Shown piece after piece: positions 2,507 to 15,900 of a stretch of 64,000 nucleotides of DNA. The notes beneath the pieces are model-generated. The model ran no database searches and was not told the origin of the DNA. It saw only the letters and a program-made list of their open reading frames with translations. The stretch is from the NCBI GenBank assembly GCA_963702895.1, contig OY969767.1:2336001-2400000 (forward strand), written 5' to 3'. The position numbers and the translations under genes are program-made. This DNA comes from an uncultured Elusimicrobia bacterium (GTDB lineage Bacteria > Elusimicrobiota > Elusimicrobia > 2-01-FULL-59-12). Numbering within the stretch: the stretch's first letter is position 1; each line of letters opens with the position of its first letter.

Positions 2507-4173
2507 TGAATCAATCCGCTCTTGATGAAGATCTTGGGTTCGACCACCAGGTCGATTTTCCGTCCCTCAAATTCTGTCGCCGTGATTTGCTGCTCGTAAT
2601 TCCACTTCAAAAGCTCTTCCTTATATTGGGCCCCGGTGGAGGCGCCCGAAAAAGCGCTCAAGGGGGCGATGGCCCCGCTGTCGTCAATGAGGACCGTGCG
2701 GTAGCTCTCGAACGTTCCATCGCCGTAATAATGGGTGACCGTCGCGTCGATATTGTTCGCGTCGACCGAGACCACCGGCAGGACAAAGCCGCCGGCGTAA
2801 TTCCAGGTCGCATCCAGGGGGTTCGCCAGGGTGTTGGCCGCACCGGACTTCGTGTAGTTGATCTTGGTGACGTCATTGATCGCGTGGGTGTAGCTGTTGA
2901 ACCGGCCCTTCCAGAATGTGTCGCCACTCGAAAGATTTTTGAAACTGTCACTCTCGGGCACAAAGACCCCAATCTGGGTGGCGCTGGGCAACTGGGCCTC
3001 CGTCACGGTGGAGAAGCTGTCCGCGAGAGGGTGATAAACCTTGTAGGTCCCATCGAGCTGGAGCTCCGAAGCGGCGACGGTCCTCGTATTGGTCGGATCC
3101 GCGGCATCGGTGAGAACGTAATTGCCGGAGCCGTCGACCTCAATTTTCACAAGATGCCCGCCCGTCGCTGTATCGTGGATGGAATCACGGGTATTGGACT
3201 GCCCCATCTCATAGGAGGTGAGGAAGTAGTCGGGAGCGGTCTCGCCGAGTTTTCCGGACAGGTCTTTGAGGGCAACCGAGAGATCCACGGGCAGGGGTTG
3301 ATTGAACGTTCCTTTATAGAAGTAATAATCGAGCTGGTCATTGCGCTCGTTCAGAACAACAAATTTGAAAGAGTCCGGCGTGGTCCGGACGATGTACTCA
3401 TCGAGCCTGACGCGGCGGCCTTCCACGTCGACGAGGCTTTTCCCCTCCGTATAGTCCGCGTAGCGCCGCTCCATCGCCGCGGCCGCGATCACGGCATTGC
3501 GGTCCATGTCGAGCCCGACTTCATGCCTGGCCTCATGGGCGAGCGCATTGTCAGTCTTTTTCCGCGTGTCCTGCGGGATGGGCCGAGGCCGTTCAATTGA
3601 TCCGTTCCTGACGCTGGTCATTTGGCCCGCGGGAACCCTGATTTCATCCTGCGTTCCCGGGATGGCGACCCCCACCACCCCGTGATAAACAGAGACCAGA
3701 GTCCCCCCGTCCCCTGTTACCGTGTCAAATTCGGTCCCGCGCACGGCGCAAACGGCGGTCGGCGTTTGGACGGAGAATTTCTCCAGACCTTTTAGTGTTT
3801 TGACCTTGGAGATGAGGCGGCCTTTGTCCAGATAGGCTTTCGTATCTCCGTCTTGCAGTGACTTGAATTGAAGGCTGGAGTCCGCTTTGACGACGAAATG
3901 ATGACCTTCCGCCGTCACGATGTCGACGGTTGAGTGAGATCCCGTGCGGAAGATGGACCCCTCTTCCACCCGTTCTCCGGGGGAAACCACGCGCCACTGA
4001 AGAGCGCCCGGCGCGCGCATGTCGACCGTGCCCCGCACATCATCCACTTTGGCGGAGGCCGCAAAGCTCGCCGCCGCGGGGGATAAGCCCAGACATAAAA
4101 AAAGCAAGCGCTTCACCCAAAAAGCGGCGAATCGCTTGCGCCGAACTTCCGATACCTTTAAAGATGCCCTCAT
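2503..4173 (-). CDS. FecR-domain secreted protein with large C-terminal domain of unknown function
   Basis: Signal peptide; FecR-type motif FSVQTPTAVCAVRGTEF...VSVYHGVV. Confidence 0.8.
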   Translation of the reverse strand: MRASLKVSEVRRKRFAAFWVKRLLFLCLGLSPAAASFAASAKVDDVRGTVDMRAPGALQWRVVSPGERVEEGSIFRTGSHSTVDIVTAEGHHFVVKADSSLQFKSLQDGDTKAYLDKGRLISKVKTLKGLEKFSVQTPTAVCAVRGTEFDTVTGDGGTLVSVYHGVVGVAIPGTQDEIRVPAGQMTSVRNGSIERPRPIPQDTRKKTDNALAHEARHEVGLDMDRNAVIAAAAMERRYADYTEGKSLVDVEGRRVRLDEYIVRTTPDSFKFVVLNERNDQLDYYFYKGTFNQPLPVDLSVALKDLSGKLGETAPDYFLTSYEMGQSNTRDSIHDTATGGHLVKIEVDGSGNYVLTDAADPTNTRTVAASELQLDGTYKVYHPLADSFSTVTEAQLPSATQIGVFVPESDSFKNLSSGDTFWKGRFNSYTHAINDVTKINYTKSGAANTLANPLDATWNYAGGFVLPVVSVDANNIDATVTHYYGDGTFESYRTVLIDDSGAIAPLSAFSGASTGAQYKEELLKWNYEQQITATEFEGRKIDLVVEPKIFIKSGLIQ

Positions 4174-4310
4174 ACTGATTTGGCAGCCCCACTATCCCCG
4201 ATCCAGGGACTGGAAGCTTTGCGTACACACCCTTGTTGCCAACCCGCCGTGACTGCACCGGAGGGCCCGCCAGCGTCTCCATGGCGGGGGGGTAGCCTTT
4301 AACAATCAGT
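4174..4310 (-). ncRNA. c-di-GMP-I (GEMM) riboswitch variant with enlarged P2
   Basis: Minus strand: P1 ACUGAUU/AAUCAGU, G-UUAAA-GGC junction, ACGCAAAGCUUCCAGUC...GAUAGUGGGGCUGCC matching the GEMM 3' half; ends directly at ATG 4173. Confidence 0.8.
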
Positions 4311-4315
4311 GGGAC

Positions 4316-4345
4316 ATGTTTAGCGCGGAATCAGAGGTTCGTCAA
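4316..4345 (-). promoter_or_regulatory. Putative sigma70 promoter for the riboswitch-led operon
   Basis: TTGACG-17 bp-TAAACA(T); predicted start near 4310, the 5' end of P1. Confidence 0.55.
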
Positions 4346-4432
4346 CGAAGAACTTTTCACGTAAATTCGTGTTAAAAGTGATTTCCCCACCCTTGTCGAG
4401 AGAAGCGGTTCTACGCCTTAAAATAAGGGGGT

Positions 4433-5404
4433 TTATCGAAACTCGAAGCGCAGTCCAAAGGCGGCGGCCATGTTATTGTGGTTAGCGAACTCACCATGAA
4501 GGCCCAGCTTCAGGAAGGGTAAAACGGTGATCTCAAGCCCGACTAGCGCGCGCAGGTCCGTATCTTCCACATCGCGGCTCGCCGTCCCAACCGTGTCCAG
4601 GGTCGTACTGGTGGGCGTCCCAGCGACAGAGGTAATCGTCCCAGTATTGGTGATGGAAGTACTCACTGACCCAAAATTCATATTCGCCGATGCGCCCACG
4701 TAGGGATTGAAGATCGTGATCTTCTTATTCAGAACGGCCTGGAGGCCGAAGCTCGTCGTATCCCATTGCGAACGCGTGGACCCCTCAGCATTCGATAAGA
4801 CCACGTCCGACGGGATCGTTGGATCATAGGGGGTCGTCGCGTCAAGATGACCCTTGGCATGAGTGAAATTGGCTCCCAGGGTTAGCCCAAAAGGGCGGGT
4901 GATGCCTTCCTCGATGAGATTCTTGCGGACATCCACCCCGAAAATAGTGTTTCCAATACTCGTATGGGTCGTCCCTTCATCGTGGCTGTAGGAGGGAATG
5001 CCGCCAAAGCGCACGCCCGTATCAAGCCCCCAAGGTAAGCCGATTTTAGCGTGGCCGATGATGGCGGGCATAGGGAAACGGTCTTGGACATCAATCAGGC
5101 CTGTGTCGACTACGGAGGTGCCAAGATTTCGCAGACCATCGATGTCCGCTTTCGTCCCTGATACAACGGCTTCCACGCCGAATTCAAAACCCAACATTTT
5201 GAGCTGCGTCGGCATGACATTGCCGGAGGTGGAATTAAAAGGAACGGCAACTTTGAGCTGATCGCTGATCCAGCCGCTCAGGAGCACGGAATCCGCCGTA
5301 ATCGCGTCAATGGCCTCTTCTGGCGTGGTCGGAGGAGCGGCAAGGGCGCTTCCTGATAAGAGACTCGCGACACATCCTAGGGCAAATAATTTTTCCAGTC
5401 TCAT
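4433..5404 (-). CDS. Probable outer-membrane beta-barrel protein (DUF6588-like)
   Basis: Signal peptide, GGAGG RBS, KIGLPWGLD motif, C-terminal GLRFEFR strand. Confidence 0.6.
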   Translation of the reverse strand: MRLEKLFALGCVASLLSGSALAAPPTTPEEAIDAITADSVLLSGWISDQLKVAVPFNSTSGNVMPTQLKMLGFEFGVEAVVSGTKADIDGLRNLGTSVVDTGLIDVQDRFPMPAIIGHAKIGLPWGLDTGVRFGGIPSYSHDEGTTHTSIGNTIFGVDVRKNLIEEGITRPFGLTLGANFTHAKGHLDATTPYDPTIPSDVVLSNAEGSTRSQWDTTSFGLQAVLNKKITIFNPYVGASANMNFGSVSTSITNTGTITSVAGTPTSTTLDTVGTASRDVEDTDLRALVGLEITVLPFLKLGLHGEFANHNNMAAAFGLRFEFR

Positions 5405-10801: not shown

Positions 10802-11614
10802 TTACTGGGAGTGTTCGCTGACCTGAACGTCTTTTCGCAAAGGGAGGCTCAAGCTCACCGCCTCGAGGAGCCCGGACGCCAGGGCCCCCCCGTAATAGAT
10901 CCACCACTGGTTCGGGACCTTAAAGAAGACCAGCACGCCTGTGAGCAGCATGGACACCGGAAAGGCGAAGACGGCGGCGGACAAATAATAGAGCTTCCGG
11001 GGCATGTTATCGTAGACGGCCCCTTTTTCTTCCGGATAATGGCGGGCATGGCGATAGACAATCACCCCAGCGAGGAGCAATAAGAAGACCGGGTCAATAA
11101 AGCGTAGTACAAAAACGATCGACATGAGCGCTTTGGCGTGAGGGTCTTCCGCTTTAAACCAGACCCCATCGTACGCGGGATAATTGCCCAGGCGGAAAAT
11201 CTCCACCGCCCCTCCCATGGCACGGGCGTTCAGGGTGACAAAGACGATTCCCAAGATAAATCCGAGGGTGAAGATCCCCGCGACGAATTTACGAGGAACG
11301 CGCTCGGAGCCGAAGCAGAGGCTGATCATGGCGACGAAAACCGCCGGGGCAAAGAGCGCCATCATGCAGAACTCCCGCAAACTGTTGATGACCAGCGGCA
11401 TCGGGTGCGGTCCCAGCAGGATCTGAAGGGGACGGCTGATGAGGTAGGCGCCAAAAAAAGCGAAGCCCCAAGACGCTCCCTTGTAGGTTTTTTCTCCCGT
11501 CACAAGGATCCGCATCGGAGCGATGTGAGAAGTGTAGCGCGCCAGCCCAAAGAAGGTGATGCCCGCGCTGATCGGAAGCGCGACATTGGCCAGGACCAGC
11601 CAAAAATCTCTCAT
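10802..11614 (-). CDS. Uncharacterised multi-pass membrane protein (about 7 TM)
   Basis: About seven hydrophobic segments; start overlaps the glyS stop. Confidence 0.75.
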   Translation of the reverse strand: MRDFWLVLANVALPISAGITFFGLARYTSHIAPMRILVTGEKTYKGASWGFAFFGAYLISRPLQILLGPHPMPLVINSLREFCMMALFAPAVFVAMISLCFGSERVPRKFVAGIFTLGFILGIVFVTLNARAMGGAVEIFRLGNYPAYDGVWFKAEDPHAKALMSIVFVLRFIDPVFLLLLAGVIVYRHARHYPEEKGAVYDNMPRKLYYLSAAVFAFPVSMLLTGVLVFFKVPNQWWIYYGGALASGLLEAVSLSLPLRKDVQVSEHSQ

Positions 11615-13740
11615 GCCTCGACCTTCATTCCTGATTGTTGTAATTTGGAAAAATCCGCGATCTGGCTGAAGAGGCCCACCAGGCGCTTCATGAGCGCTAA
11701 GCGATTGGCGCGCAGGGCCGGGTCATCGGCCATGACCATGACGCCATTAAAAAATCCATCCAGAGGGTCCCGCAAGGGCACCATGGTCTCCAGCGCCTGC
11801 CGGTAAGCTTGCTGCGCGAGGTGCCGGGACACTTCCTCTCCTGCAAACTCCATGGCCTCGTACAGCGATTGCTCGCACGGCTCCCGAAAGAGACTGGGTT
11901 GGATGGGAACACTTTCCGCGCGCTCCCCGCCCTTAAAAGCTTGACGGACGATGTTCATGCCCCGCTTAAACGAAACCGATAAAGGCTCAAACTCTTTTTT
12001 CTTGCGAAGTTCATGTAGAGCCTCCAGCCGCGCGATGGCTTCGGGCACGAGACCCACGCTCGTGGAGAGCACCGCGTCAATCTCATCACTCTTAAAGCCC
12101 CGCTCTTCCAGAAGGGCAGAAAAACGCTGGAGCATGAAGATTTTCAGTTTTTGTTGGGTATCGTCCGATTGGCTTTGGGCATGGGCTGGCTGCAAACCGA
12201 CGCTCTGCTCCACCAACCATTCCAAACGCCAGGGCCAGCGGGAAGCTTCCAAGATCCTGAGCACCCCCACGGCTGCTCTTCTCAATCCATAAGGATCCGC
12301 CGATCCAGAAGGGATGAGTCCAACGGCAAAGTCGCCTGCCAGAGTGTCCAGCTTATCCGCCAAGGCCACGAGCGAAGCGATGGGAGACGAGGGCAGCTGG
12401 CTGGTGAGCGTCATCGGATGGTAATGTTCCTCGAGCGCCCGGGAGACCGCCGCGTCTTCACCATCGGCCTCCGCGTAGAGCCTTGCGACAACGCCCTGAA
12501 GCTCGGGGAACTCGCGCACCATATCGGTCACCAGATCCGCCTTGCAGAGGTCCGCCGCCCGAAGGGCCTTCGCCAGGTCCTCCAGCCCGCCCGCCGCTGA
12601 GGAGAACGCCTCGATGAGTTTTTTAACTCTTTCTTTTTTGTCGAAGAGATGCCCTAATTTTTCCTGGAAGATGACGCCTTTCAAAGCTTCCACGCGGGAC
12701 GCGAGCGTCTGGCGCCGGTCATGGTCATAGAAAAAGCGGGCGTCGGCGAGCCGTGCAGCCAGCACCCGCTCATAGCCCTCACGGACCATCTCCTGGTGGA
12801 CGGACATCCCGTTACGGATCCCGACAAAGTGCGGCAGAAGATGGCCGCCCGAGGCCTCTTCGACAGGAAAATACTTTTGGTGGTGTTCGAGACACGTCAC
12901 GAGAACTTCCTTGGGAAGCTTTAAATAACCCGCTTCGAAATTGCCGAGGATGGCCACAGGATGCTCGACCAATTGGGTGACCAGCTCAAGCAGGGGCTGC
13001 GACATATGGACCTTCCCGTGGATACGCTTCACCGTCTGATCCGCCAAGCGACGGATGGTCTCCCGGCGCGTTTCGGATTCTACGAGAACACACTGGTTTT
13101 TGAGAGTCATGACATATTTGGACGCTTGCGTGACTTGCACCTTCTTGGGGGCCCAGGGCCCAAGGCCGAGCGTCCAGCGTGCTGAACGTACGCCCGCGAG
13201 CGCAAACGACACAAGATCGGGTCCATAGAGGGCGCAAATCCAACGGATGGGACGCGGGTATCGGAAATTCGAGGGTTCCCAGACCATGGACTTCGGAAAT
13301 TCGAGTTTCGTGATCCATTGGGGAAAAAGATCAGCGAGGAGCTGCCTGGCGGGAACTCCTTTAAGGTGGAGCACGGCACTCACTTTGCCATTTTCGATTT
13401 GGAGCTCGGAAGGTTTGAGTCCCTGCTTGCGCGCAAAACCGAGAGCGGCCGGCGACCATTGTCCCTGCGCGTCCTGCGCAACCTGAACCGGCGGTCCGGA
13501 GACACGCTTTTCTTGGTCCGGCGAGCGATCGGGAAGGCCATGAAGAACGACCGCAAGACGCCGCGGTGTCCCAAAAACTTCAACGCGGTCATACTTCATC
13601 CCGCTTGCCTTCAGGGACTCTTCTGCGAGTCGCGAAAGTTGCTCAAGGGCCGGCGCGATAAAGGAAGCGGGGAGCTCTTCGGAACCAATCTCCAATAGGG
13701 CATCCGACGTGCGACGTCCGAGGTCTGGAGCCTTGGTCAT
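11611..13740 (-). CDS. glyS: Glycine-tRNA ligase beta subunit
   Basis: [47 protein letters not shown]. Confidence 0.97.
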
Positions 13741-13790
13741 GGGGCGAGGGCCTCGGACGTCGGACGTTGGACATCGGACGATTGGACGTA
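13703..13790. repeat. Inverted heptamer (TCGGACG) arrays straddling the glyQ stop / glyS start
   Basis: tccgacg tgcgacg tccgagg ... cctcggacg tcggacg ttggaca tcggacg; encodes the GlyQ tail and the GlyS leader. Confidence 0.85.
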
Positions 13791-14612
13791 AGCCTGAGCG
13801 ACGGCGCAGGCGAGCGCCCGCACGCGCGCGATATAAGTGACACGCTCTGAAACGGAGATGGCCCCGCGCGCGTCGAGCAAATTAAACGTATGGGAGCATT
13901 TCATGACCTGCTCATAGGCAGGCTTCACAAGACCCGCAGCCAGCAGGCGTTTGGACTCCCGCTCATAATTCGTAAAGCTCTGGCGCAGGAGGTCCACATC
14001 CGCCAGCTCAAAGTTGTATTTCGAAAACTGTTTTTCATCTTCCAGGTGCATTTCCCCATAGGTGGTTTTGGCCGTCCAGAGCACGTCAAAGACGTTATTT
14101 TTCTTTTGGGAGTACATGGCGAGGCGCTCCAGGCCATAGGTGAGCTCCACTGAAATCGGGTCAAGCTTGACTCCCCCGATTTCTTGAAAATAGGTGAACT
14201 GCGTGATCTCCATGCCGTCCAGCCAAACCTCCCAGCCCAACCCCCAGGCGCCCAGTGTCGGAGATTCCCAGTCGTCTTCCACAAAGCGGATGTCGTGCTG
14301 TTTGGGGTCGATGCCGATCGCCCGCAAAGAGGCCAGGTAGAGCGCCTGGACATTTGAAGGAGAGGGCTTCAGGATCACCTGGTACTGGTAATAATGCTGG
14401 AGGCGATTAGGGTTGTCGCCATAACGGCCATCGGTGGGACGCCGGCTGGGCTCGACATAGGCCACTTTCCAGGGTTTGGGGGTCAGGCACTCGAGGAACG
14501 TCGCGGGGTTGAAGGTCCCGGCGCCTTTTTCGATGTCGTAAGGCTGCCACAGAAGGCATCCCTGCTTCGCCCAGTATTTATGAAGGGTCAGGATGATGTC
14601 TTGAAAGGTCAC
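13737..14612 (-). CDS. glyQ: Glycine-tRNA ligase alpha subunit (GTG start)
   Basis: [50 protein letters not shown]. Confidence 0.97.
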
Positions 14613-14719
14613 CCCACCACCTCTTTTCCAACCCTTGATCGCGCAAGCGAGCAAGGCCCGGTCGCGACGGCGACCGGGATTCGCTCCCGCGAATGTTGCA
14701 AAAGAGGTGGTGGGGTCAT
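14609..14719. mobile_element. 104-bp MITE-like palindrome with TGA duplication at the recO/glyQ junction
   Basis: 17-bp perfect inverted repeat ACCCCACCACCTCTTTT; removing the element plus one TGA restores ATGACCTTT. Confidence 0.8.
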
Positions 14720-15375
14720 ATTTCAACTCCTGCCAGCTGTCTAAAACGGTTCACGTGCAAAGGTCGGGCCAGATGATCCGTGACGGTTGCCCCGGCCAGA
14801 TGCTCTACGGCCGTGAGCGCGGGGCCCTTCCAATTTTCCCGGGCCAGCACTTCCAAGGGAGCGTTTTTGAGCGCGCCCGCCCAGATCGGGTGCTTTTCCT
14901 CCAAATCCATCCAGGAGTCCCGGTGATCTAAACCCAGTCCCGCCGCCGCCAGAAACCGTACCGCAAAGGCCAGGCGCAGAACCCCCAGATAAGGCGCCGT
15001 CGTCAAAGCGTTCAATGTCTCTTTCAAGAGCGCAAACTTATCCGGACTGGGCTGTTCTTCGGGGGTGAGCCGCTGGACCACTTCGCAGACCCAGGACGCC
15101 GCCGTCGTGCGCGCCACTTCCGTACGAAGAGCGGGGTAGCTGGAGACCATGCGGCCCCCGGTGATTTTCCCCCACCCTCGTCCAGGCACAAGATAAAGCG
15201 CGAGATCGCTTTCCACAAAAGGCTCTGTGAGCGCAGAGAACTTGGCGGTGGCGCGCGCAGCACTGGTCGCCTTGGCCGTCAAGCGGCCCATTTCACGCGT
15301 AAAAAGCCCGACGATTTTATCCGCCTCGCGACTTCGCCGGGACCACAACACGACCGCACGCACATTATGAATCAT
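14716..15375 (-). CDS. recO: DNA repair protein RecO
   Basis: AVVL...[18 protein letters not shown]-terminal motif; position upstream of glyQ. Confidence 0.9.
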
Positions 15376-15900
15376 ACTCTTGAGAGAGAGTGTGCCATAT
15401 CTGGCCCTTGCCCTTCCAGCCCATCCAGCCAATCCCCGATTGACTTCCAGAAAGTTATGCGCCACGCTCATGCCTGTGAATCGCATTTCCCTTAGCTTTG
15501 TCTTCGGTTTAGGGATCGTTTTTCAGGACGGTCTTGATCGGATGAATGATCGTTTCGGCTGGCTCCCCTCGTCGGCCATGGCAAACCTCAGCTTCATTGC
15601 TCTGCAGTATGTCTTTCTTCTCATCTCAGGCTTCAACAGACTCCAAAATTCTCCCGCTTCTTAATCCCCAAGGAAGGTCGAAAGGGGTCTGACCCCAAGC
15701 GATATTCCCCTACCAAAACGACACCCGTCGATTGCGCGAACGGGGGTGTTCGGGGGATGTTCCTAGGTTGGTCGAAGGGCCTATTCAAGACAACAAAAGA
15801 CCCATATCTTTTTGGCCAAAAGGCATCTGGAAAGCGTCTCATAATCCGCCTAAAATTAAGTACCTCGAACGCGCGCGCATTACGCGCGTTCGATGTATCT

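Follow-up and report, generated by a model that had tools for sequence, protein, structure and literature searches.

A 104-bp MITE-like element in the recO/glyQ start-codon overlap of an Elusimicrobia genome probably relays translation through an open reading frame of its own

We describe a short repeat element inserted between recO and glyQ in the genome of an uncultured Elusimicrobia bacterium (GTDB lineage Bacteria; Elusimicrobiota; Elusimicrobia; 2-01-FULL-59-12), found in a stretch of 64,000 nucleotides (assembly GCA_963702895.1, contig OY969767.1, positions 2,336,001 to 2,400,000 of the forward strand) that we call the window. We think it likely that the element is a non-autonomous, MITE-like transposon (MITE, miniature inverted-repeat transposable element), which entered the four-base ATGA shared by the recO stop and the glyQ start, through which translation is relayed, whose copies in this genome are orphans, and which belongs to a superfamily with GIY-YIG nucleases.

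On the minus strand, the junction reads ...GTTGAAAT-ATGA-[CCCCACCACCTCTTTT ... AAAAGAGGTGGTGGGG]-TGA-CCTTTCAAGAC: the 3' end of recO (..GTTGAAATATGA) is followed directly by the element, and then by a second TGA and CCTTTCAAGAC. A preliminary description of the window had given this junction as A-TGA-[104 bp]-TGA-CCTTT, with the ATG that overlaps the recO stop opening a stop-free open reading frame (ORF) of 36 codons, the TGA of this mini-ORF overlapping the GTG of glyQ, and the right repeat supplying GAGGTGG as a possible ribosome-binding site (RBS). All of this holds on the minus strand (element 14715..14612; ORF 14719..14609; TGA 14611..14609 and GTG 14612..14610; GAGGTG at 14623..14618, 5 nt before the GTG). 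The features are as follows, the flanking genes last.

14612..14715, minus strand: MITE-like element of 104 bp, with TGA/TGA flanks; 10/10 relatives have no element at this junction
14700..14715, minus strand: left terminal inverted repeat CCCCACCACCTCTTTT, the 5' arm in the mRNA
14679..14694, minus strand: internal hairpin 1, ATTCGC-GGGA-GCGAAT, from minimum free energy (MFE) structures
14657..14678, minus strand: internal hairpin 2, CCCGGTCGC-CGTC-GCGACCGGG, from MFE structures
14633..14656, minus strand: internal hairpin 3, from MFE structures
14612..14627, minus strand: right terminal inverted repeat AAAAGAGGTGGTGGGG, whose last G is the first base of the new start codon
14623..14618, minus strand: near-consensus Shine-Dalgarno (SD) motif GAGGTG in the right repeat, 5 nt before the GTG
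14718..14716, minus strand: recO stop TGA, the left copy of the duplicated target
14717..14719, minus strand: ancestral glyQ ATG, overlapping the recO stop as ATGA and now the start of the mini-ORF; the relatives G003, G001, G004, and G005 read ..ATGAC(A/C/T)TT.. with glyQ from this ATG
14609..14719, minus strand: relay mini-ORF, 36 codons plus TGA, from the old ATG to the second TGA
14609..14611, minus strand: right copy of the duplicated TGA, the stop of the mini-ORF
14612..14609, minus strand: rebuilt glyQ GTG start (14612..14610), in GTGA overlap with the mini-ORF stop
14716..15486, minus strand: recO, from the ORF list and its translation (Pfam RecO_N 1.2e-15, RecO_C 5.1e-12)
13737..14612, minus strand: glyQ (Pfam tRNA-synt_2e, E 1.8e-147)
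11611..13740, minus strand: glyS-like ORF of 709 codons, named from its position alone, with a native ATGA overlap with glyQ (ccccATGAcc at 13737-13740)

The terminal inverted repeats (TIRs) are perfect over 16/16 nt; the window contains 2 matches, where shuffled sequence would give 0.01. The 36-codon relay frame is the sole ORF of the 104-bp element, which offers no transposase-sized space. The left repeat CCCCACCACCTCTTTT resembles the 3' end of 16S rRNA (the 16S-like 3' end GGATCACCTCCTTTCT lies at genome position 580307), and the mini-ORF reads this repeat as Thr-Pro-Pro-Pro-Leu-Leu. The predicted folding energy of the region is -83.1 kcal/mol (z = -10.7 relative to 200 shuffles), and in the transcript fold a 16-17-bp terminal stem surrounds three GC hairpins. 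Before the insertion, the recO-glyQ-glyS operon was a chain of -4 overlaps, of which the one between glyQ and glyS is still present. The N terminus of GlyQ aligns with the MTFQ(D/E)IILTL of 10 relatives.

The empty-site comparison that the preliminary description had proposed bears the insertion out. In the same-family genomes, recO lies directly upstream of glyQ in 10/10, and an uninterrupted recO/glyQ ATGA is present in four of the ten (G003, G001, G004, and G005), including two of the three congeners (G003 and G001); in these four the junction ..GA(A/G)ATATGAC.. corresponds to a recO ending in ..EI* that overlaps glyQ MTFQ as ATGA. The junction in the window equals this ATGA state plus [104 bp + TGA]. 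As judged from these junctions, the insertion is precise, duplicated the TGA, and postdates the divergence from the three congeners; with it the glyQ start changed from ATG to GTG. Further empty sites are found at tsf/pyrH (TTGA) in G003 and at fabZ/lpxA (ATGA) in G003 and G008, and the three family copies of G003 sit at other genes, so the family has moved since the species split. Elsewhere in the bacterial family, the recO/glyQ junction consists of TAA plus 2-8 nt (G002, G010, and G009) or carries unrelated hairpin-rich inserts of 129, 115, and 59 nt (L061 in G007, L062 in G008, and L063 in G006, respectively), that of G008 being built from tandem GGAGCAC-like units; this junction is a hot spot for small repeats.

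A very stable multi-hairpin fold in front of an aminoacyl-tRNA synthetase operon would also be expected of a conserved glyQS regulatory leader (an attenuator or RNA switch) that is not mobile DNA at all. We give this explanation practically no weight: the junction lacks the element in all 10 relatives, and we take these empty sites as its refutation; the same repeats, with unrelated interiors, precede lpxA, pyrH, glycogen-debranching-type (GDE), GGDEF, and glycosyltransferase genes; the duplications vary among copies (TGA, TGG/CCA, TAA); the best Rfam match scores 22 bits against a gathering score of 100; and ARAGORN found no tRNA.

Whole-element BLAST against the element's own genome returned only the self-match, and the family emerged through the terminal repeats. 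Six elements in this genome share these repeats, all with TGA/TGA flanks on the gene strand and all in minus-strand genes (G000:C1, positions 1071876, 1357590, 2028588, 2138559, 2350612, and 2410926), the five copies besides that of the window measuring 131, 104, 104, 68, and 107 bp. The copies are dispersed, as expected of a MITE, and low in number. Every one of the six sits on an NTGA start codon (N, any base), and in every one a frame without stops extends from the old NTG as far as the second TGA, itself overlapping the rebuilt GTG. Five lie in gene/gene overlaps, and in 5/6 a Pfam-identified gene ends at the first TGA. By Pfam, the flanking pairs are FabA-like/LpxA, EF-Ts/amino-acid-kinase (pyrH-like), RecO/GlyQ, GGDEF/GGDEF, and recN-like SMC_N protein/PMT-family glycosyltransferase; the remaining copy occupies the GTGA start of the glycogen-debranching-type gene, which no upstream gene overlaps. 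Of the 88,436 TGA sites, 1,004 are an NTGA flanked on either side by 100 or more open codons; under this generous chance model, the probability that at least five of six copies fall in NTGA gene/gene overlaps is 1.1e-9. According to GC skew, four copies are in leading-strand and two in lagging-strand genes; the location of all six on the minus strand is probably chance. The 16-nt ends of these copies are nearly perfect despite mutually unalignable interiors.

Beyond this genome, the repeat pattern is found in 8/41 relatives, the TGA-flanked pattern in 12/401 genomes sampled from the phylum, and a one-genome-per-species scan gives 55 loci; the named records of the family are titled Elusimicrobiota, Omnitrophota/Omnitrophica, and Planctomycetia, spanning three phyla. 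The relatives search and the contig scan, with sequence-identical copies removed, yield 50 distinct TGA-flanked elements, 40 of which are strict relays, all of them 2 mod 3 in length although they come in 14 lengths (56, 59, 65, 68, 71, 74, 77, 80, 83, 86, 89, 104, 107, and 131 bp). The relay frame, starting at the old start codon, is open to the second TGA in 40/40 of them, with 0 stops, whereas the other sense frames are open in 21/40 and 12/40 (31 and 41 stops, respectively) and the antisense frames in 22-24 of 40. Among the TGA-flanked copies newly found in the contig scan, 15 of 17 are relays. The TGA is preceded by A, G, or T in 50/50 elements and by C in 0/50, and copies ending in ..GGGA rebuild an ATG rather than a GTG. 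Seven long copies align with each other in the terminal stem only.

The ten non-relay copies comprise eight that are 0 mod 3 and two that are 1 mod 3 in length. One of the latter (L084, 50-128) is a tandem of two relays, the first mini-ORF ending on an internal GTGA and the second, of 13 codons, running from there to the rebuilt start of the gene; in the other (L044) the ORF stops 5 nt past the rebuilt start. The 0 mod 3 members are predicted from their frames to be read through as N-terminal extensions, as in L213 (4256..5089), where M-TPPPAYTPKVDGVIHQPKWPKAGGG-V-TLLAIDIGNT places 25 element-encoded codons before a CoaX-like N terminus. We also observe a sister subfamily of ~54-78 bp with ends CCCCACCACCTG../..CAGGTGGTGGGG, without a good SD, mostly 0 mod 3 in length, and with TGA, CCA/TGG, or TAA duplications (L030-L033, L035 at 3021-3080, L037, L041, L043, and L051, as well as L213 at 4256-5089); at ATGA sites its members show in-frame read-through, with an N-terminal extension of ~20-25 residues (xPPPxGEA..GGG).

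This comparative evidence supports a ribosome relay, in which we infer both the translation of the mini-ORF and its coupling to the genes on either side. On finishing recO, ribosomes would start anew at the old ATG, just as in the state that preceded the insertion, with the same ATG and the native upstream context driving translation of the mini-ORF. They would then translate it, melting a structure of about -75 kcal/mol, terminate at the UGA, and re-initiate on the spot at the GUG with the assistance of the SD. Binding of fresh 30S subunits would be blocked, the SD and GUG being locked in the 16-bp terminal stem, and the terminating ribosome itself would be handed on at the GUGA, which is more than the unmasking of an RBS. 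Two couplings are thus chained, ATGA from recO to the mini-ORF and GTGA from the mini-ORF to glyQ.

A fold model of the mRNA predicts how tightly the start site is held. In free mRNA, the probability of being unpaired is 0.0001 for the SD and 0.002 for the GUG; a ribosome on the left arm leaves the SD 17-19% free; and with a ribosome in the middle of the element, the arms can re-pair behind it. SD and GUG are predicted to come free only once a ribosome has reached the final codons of the mini-ORF, and are then inside that ribosome, so a relay of this kind would call for a frame without stops over its whole extent and for an element length of 2 mod 3. The family would survive only at sites, and only in the 2 mod 3 lengths, in which the relay works. 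A promoter for glyQ within the element, which the preliminary description had named as a finding that would speak against coupling, is not seen: the element contains no sigma-70-like site. The genome, a single contig that is 98% complete, holds one match to glyQ and no dimeric glycyl-tRNA synthetase (GlyRS) that passes the cut-off (the best match has 23 bits where 243 are required), and glyQ must be expressed because no second GlyRS is found.

The same insertion could also be real and involve no relay, with independent initiation at the SD and GTG of the right repeat, an accidental mini-ORF, and an RBS freed by stem breathing or by an RNase III cut of the terminal stem. The SD of the right repeat is well spaced, as such initiation would need, the partial freeing of the SD predicted with a ribosome on the left arm points the same way, and the long perfect stems are plausible RNase III substrates; long stems are cut by RNase III in Correia elements and phage leaders. 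We nevertheless hold independent initiation to be unlikely, for it leaves unexplained why the relay frame is open in every relay copy while the other sense frames hold tens of stops, why all 14 relay lengths are 2 mod 3, and why the ORF always ends on the rebuilt start, and it has to contend with an SD that is predicted to be almost never unpaired in intact mRNA.

A further possibility is an N-terminally extended GlyQ, starting at the TTG at 14726 or at an internal TTG, for which the element would be a 38-residue leader. The longest ORF in the glyQ frame (13737..14726, 329 aa) would accommodate such a product, and 0 mod 3 members of the family such as L213 (4256..5089) are read through in frame. 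The downstream frame is closed inside the element in four of the six own copies, however, remaining open for 45, 87, 84, and 9 nt where element plus duplication span 134, 107, 107, and 71 nt; the TTG at 14726 lies inside recO with no SD seen before it; and GlyQ starts at MTFQ in all 10 relatives. We judge this extension to be very improbable.

The preliminary description had also proposed testing whether copies favour TGA stop/start overlaps genome-wide. In the own genome they do, with 6/6 on NTGA and 5/6 in overlaps, but the common denominator turns out to be the start codon followed by a purine (NTG|R) and not the overlap as such. Of the 36 relay copies whose upstream side can be resolved, 26 have an ORF of 100 codons or more that terminates at the first TGA, and in one 80-bp copy the duplication is TGG, on an ATGG with which a 533-codon gene begins; what is constant is therefore start codon plus purine, not the gene/gene overlap. 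Since the duplications vary in the family (TGA, TGG/TGG, CCA/CCA, TAA/TAA), they are true target duplications and not part of the element.

Such a location might result from purifying selection on random TGR insertions of an element that has no adaptation to translation. Consistent with this, the CCACCTG-end subfamily has no good SD and carries TGA, CCA/TGG, and TAA duplications, and several of its copies lie away from the starts of long ORFs, which indicates that the insertion machinery is not restricted to start codons. If insertion into TGR were random and the harmless copies survived, however, intergenic copies should dominate, and they do not: intergenic TGA should outnumber NTGA starts and do no harm, yet copies away from such starts number 0/6 in the own genome and only ~3 among those of the SD type. 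Moreover, the repeat encodes the SD, the spacer, and the first base of the start codon, which looks like adaptation. Selection as the whole explanation is in our estimate a poor prospect.

We searched five genomes for a mobilizing partner and found no DDE transposase with matching ends (DUF4096, DDE_Tnp_1, DDE_Tnp_1_2, and rve); DUF4096 and DDE_Tnp_1_2 were each found in 0/5 genomes, and the rve matches are without the element repeats. A 3-bp T-N-A duplication is a trait of the IS5 family, and a MITE derived from this family was considered and rejected, as no IS5-type transposase gene is framed by these repeats. The sole DDE_Tnp_1 insertion sequence (IS) of the own genome, 1273 bp in length, was likewise rejected, having other repeats and 8-9-bp duplications; with a 402-codon frame, ends CACTCGTGTCCGG.., and seven identical copies in G000:C1 (e.g., at 980810-981445 and 2317926-2318561, the latter 18 kb ahead of the window), it has the look of a currently active IS and bears no relation to the element. 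A 998-bp repeat pair at genome positions 169017..170014 is coding sequence, with ORFs that we take to be metG and holB.

A candidate of a different kind is found in another, related genome (G022) that holds at least nine MITE copies. On its contig C71, a 319-bp element, TGA|TCCCACCACCTTTCATGGCA...TGCCATGAAAGGTGTGGGA|TGA with termini TCCCACCACCTTTCATGG...AAAGGTGTGGGA, sits on the ATGA start of a gene that, from its N terminus ..IAMDGPAGVGKST, we take to be a cytidylate kinase (cmk-like). It encodes only a 92-aa GIY-YIG nuclease, whose ORF stops on the right TGA, overlapping the rebuilt ATG. This element and the 104-bp element of the window have in common 11 terminal nt (TCCCACCACCT), the TGA duplication, the ATGA site, and an ORF ending on the right TGA; their inner repeats differ (..CCTCTTTT in the window and ..CCTTTCATGG in the GIY-YIG element). 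A 68%-identical paralogue of the GIY-YIG element has a TGG duplication on ATGG, and a third GIY-YIG element, in G006, has other repeats and is also on ATGA. Three ~242-bp derivatives in G022 have kept the ends and lost the nuclease; two of these are 82-codon relays, one of them lying between ORFs of 421 and 436 codons. The 104-bp copy in the window is without a nuclease remnant. On balance, we lean slightly toward the GIY-YIG mini-element as the best candidate for an autonomous relative; it is probable that the 104-bp element is part of a superfamily in which a ~90-aa GIY-YIG nuclease is all that autonomous members encode.

In the own genome, none of the nine places with GIY-YIG ORFs is framed by the element repeats, and the six copies are probably orphans because no GIY-YIG partner with these ends is present in the genome. 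Eight of the places are small, with 82-136 codons (G000:C1 205875, 543339, 554279, 580617, 1700967, 1803883, 1813193, and 1813505), and one small ORF is interrupted by TGA; the ninth, a 447-codon frame at 1115987, is presumably uvrC. The ORF at 1813505-1813693 lies between the arms of a 17-bp inverted repeat with another sequence, and several GIY-YIG ORFs of relatives adjoin tRNA genes (L217-L219, L224).

Taken further than the evidence above carries us with any assurance, these data allow the tentative proposal that start-codon-homing GIY-YIG mini-transposons form an undescribed superfamily in several phyla, with the element as a gene-less member whose repeats act as anti-SD/SD pair plus start base and whose insertion is aimed at RBS-proximal NTG|R, not just filtered by selection; we consider this possible, though the doubts outweigh our confidence. 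If it were true, a transposon end would double as a portable translation-initiation cassette, and essential operons (glyQS, pyrH, lpxA) would depend on translating a Thr-Pro-Pro-Pro leader through a hairpin of about -75 kcal/mol, such that their expression could be sensitive to elongation factor P (EF-P) or to ribosome helicase activity. If the GIY-YIG link is true, the family would be a new kind of bacterial transposon.

Several points weigh against the reading of the element as a mobile relay with GIY-YIG kin. The interiors of the six own copies cannot be aligned, which is odd for recent insertions from one source and would imply either many source lineages or a fast turnover of the hairpins with complementarity kept. 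The glyQ frame is also open through the recO/glyQ copy, back to the TTG at 14726. A partner element with these ends was not found in this genome, and the GIY-YIG link consists of 11 terminal bases, the duplication, and the site type, in another genome. Furthermore, the set of 50 copies was defined by a pattern that requires TGA on both sides, and one own copy with degenerate repeats falls outside that pattern; the copies are partly kin (nine of 71 bp and eight of 80 bp), so that 40/40 open frames overstates the number of independent trials. Finally, copies may be aimed at start codons or may simply be those that selection has spared: resemblance between target sites and the repeat end is only slightly elevated (5.1 of 14 positions, as against 4.4, P = 0.02, with a control drawn from one genome).

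Other matches to the repeats were set aside or recorded separately. A metagenome scan for the subclass with a TTCGC..GCGAA first hairpin gave one match, with a CCA/TGG duplication and without a clear gene; two matches on viral contigs have no duplications and were judged unrelated; and repeat ends without a mate were put down to decayed MITEs or to coding sequence that matches by chance. Among repeat pairs at distances of 131-500 bp there is a 198-bp non-coding element, the others being repeats that belong to two separate elements. Arms of the same 11-nt palindrome are also spaced exactly 82 nt apart, without duplications, in L078, L085, L088, L091, L092, L097, L108, and L116, in records titled Synechococcus, Gemmatimonadota, Corynebacterium, Intestinimonas, and Pseudoflavonifractor; a spacing that does not vary between phyla points to some conserved gene or RNA segment and not to this element. 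Another MITE-like element at about 2423083-2423360 of G000:C1, 23 kb beyond the end of the window, has different inverted repeats (..CCTAAGTACTGACTTTCATAGGAGCG..) and is not a member of the family.

The family indicates how selfish DNA can settle where a compact genome leaves the least room, in the 4-nt overlaps between stop and start codons of essential operons: it comes with a stop, SD, and start of its own and keeps to a 2 mod 3 length rule. The comparative signal (14 lengths and 40/40 frames) is unusually clean for a mechanism that is deduced from sequence, and the family offers a natural test bed for termination-reinitiation versus de novo initiation. In genome annotation, such insertions shift annotated starts from ATG to GTG and yield spurious mini-ORFs or N-terminal extensions in gene calls; the elements may also be regarded as natural bicistronic-design cassettes.

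The published system to which the element compares most directly is MIRU, the mycobacterial interspersed repetitive units reportedly described by Supply and colleagues in 1997. MIRUs are described as apparently mobile sequences that insert at start codons, contain an ORF whose coupling to the gene is at -4 nt, and show empty sites as well as direct repeats of a tetranucleotide (PMC12548453, PMC3184786). MIRU and the element are both short dispersed repeats on start codons within operons (MIRU, 40-100 bp), with empty and filled sites, short direct repeats, and an internal ORF with -4 nt flanking overlaps that is read as minimizing the effect on expression (PMC12548453, PMC3184786). They differ in host, three uncultivated phyla against Mycobacterium, the likeness being judged from the description of MIRU and not from its sequence; in the perfect 16-bp TIRs of the element, which form an anti-SD/SD pair and have no counterpart in the MIRU description; in the duplication, 3 bp against a tetranucleotide; and in arrangement, a single unit against the tandem MIRU array of variable number tandem repeats (VNTR), with one tandem double relay in our family (L084).

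Correia/NEMIS of Neisseria, RUP and BOX of pneumococcus, and Nezha resemble the element in having TIRs and target-site duplications without a transposase, a strong RNA hairpin, empty sites, and co-transcription; they are mostly intergenic with TA or similar targets, and none is described in these reviews as confined to start codons with 2 mod 3 lengths (PMC3184786, PMC10969869). In a 2024 review of prokaryotic MITEs, the terms 'start codon' and 'stop codon' have 0 occurrences (PMC10969869). The palindromic elements of Rickettsia (RPE) are likewise palindromic, mobile, and tolerated because they are translated, but they insert in frame inside ORFs, whereas the window copy is a separate cistron between two genes; only the 0 mod 3 members of our family are RPE-like (PMC10969869). 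Neisseria REP2 and Borrelia upstream repeats are dispersed and bring an RBS and start codon to the gene downstream, as the element does; REP2, in contrast, is portrayed with no TIRs, its own promoter, and its own ATG fused to the gene, and with no relay ORF or stop/start overlap (PMC3184786).

The relay itself has the form of known ATGA/GTGA termination-reinitiation, sharing the -4 stop/start overlap and an SD inside the upstream ORF (PMC6728339, PMC10666635, PMC12548453), and synthetic bicistronic designs use a short ORF solely to deliver ribosomes (PMC12548453). Unlike ordinary coupling, the upstream ORF is here supplied by a transposon, and two couplings stand in a chain. Within the full-text literature searched, outside which most subscription-journal papers lie, no start-codon-confined MITE of the TIR type surfaced, only MIRU, and no bacterial GIY-YIG transposon with TIRs. 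By analogy of description, MIRU is the closest published analogue, from which we set the element apart rather than filing it as a MIRU; on the same comparison, the start-codon relay repeat is already known as a kind, and its TIR-type MITE version in other phyla is new.

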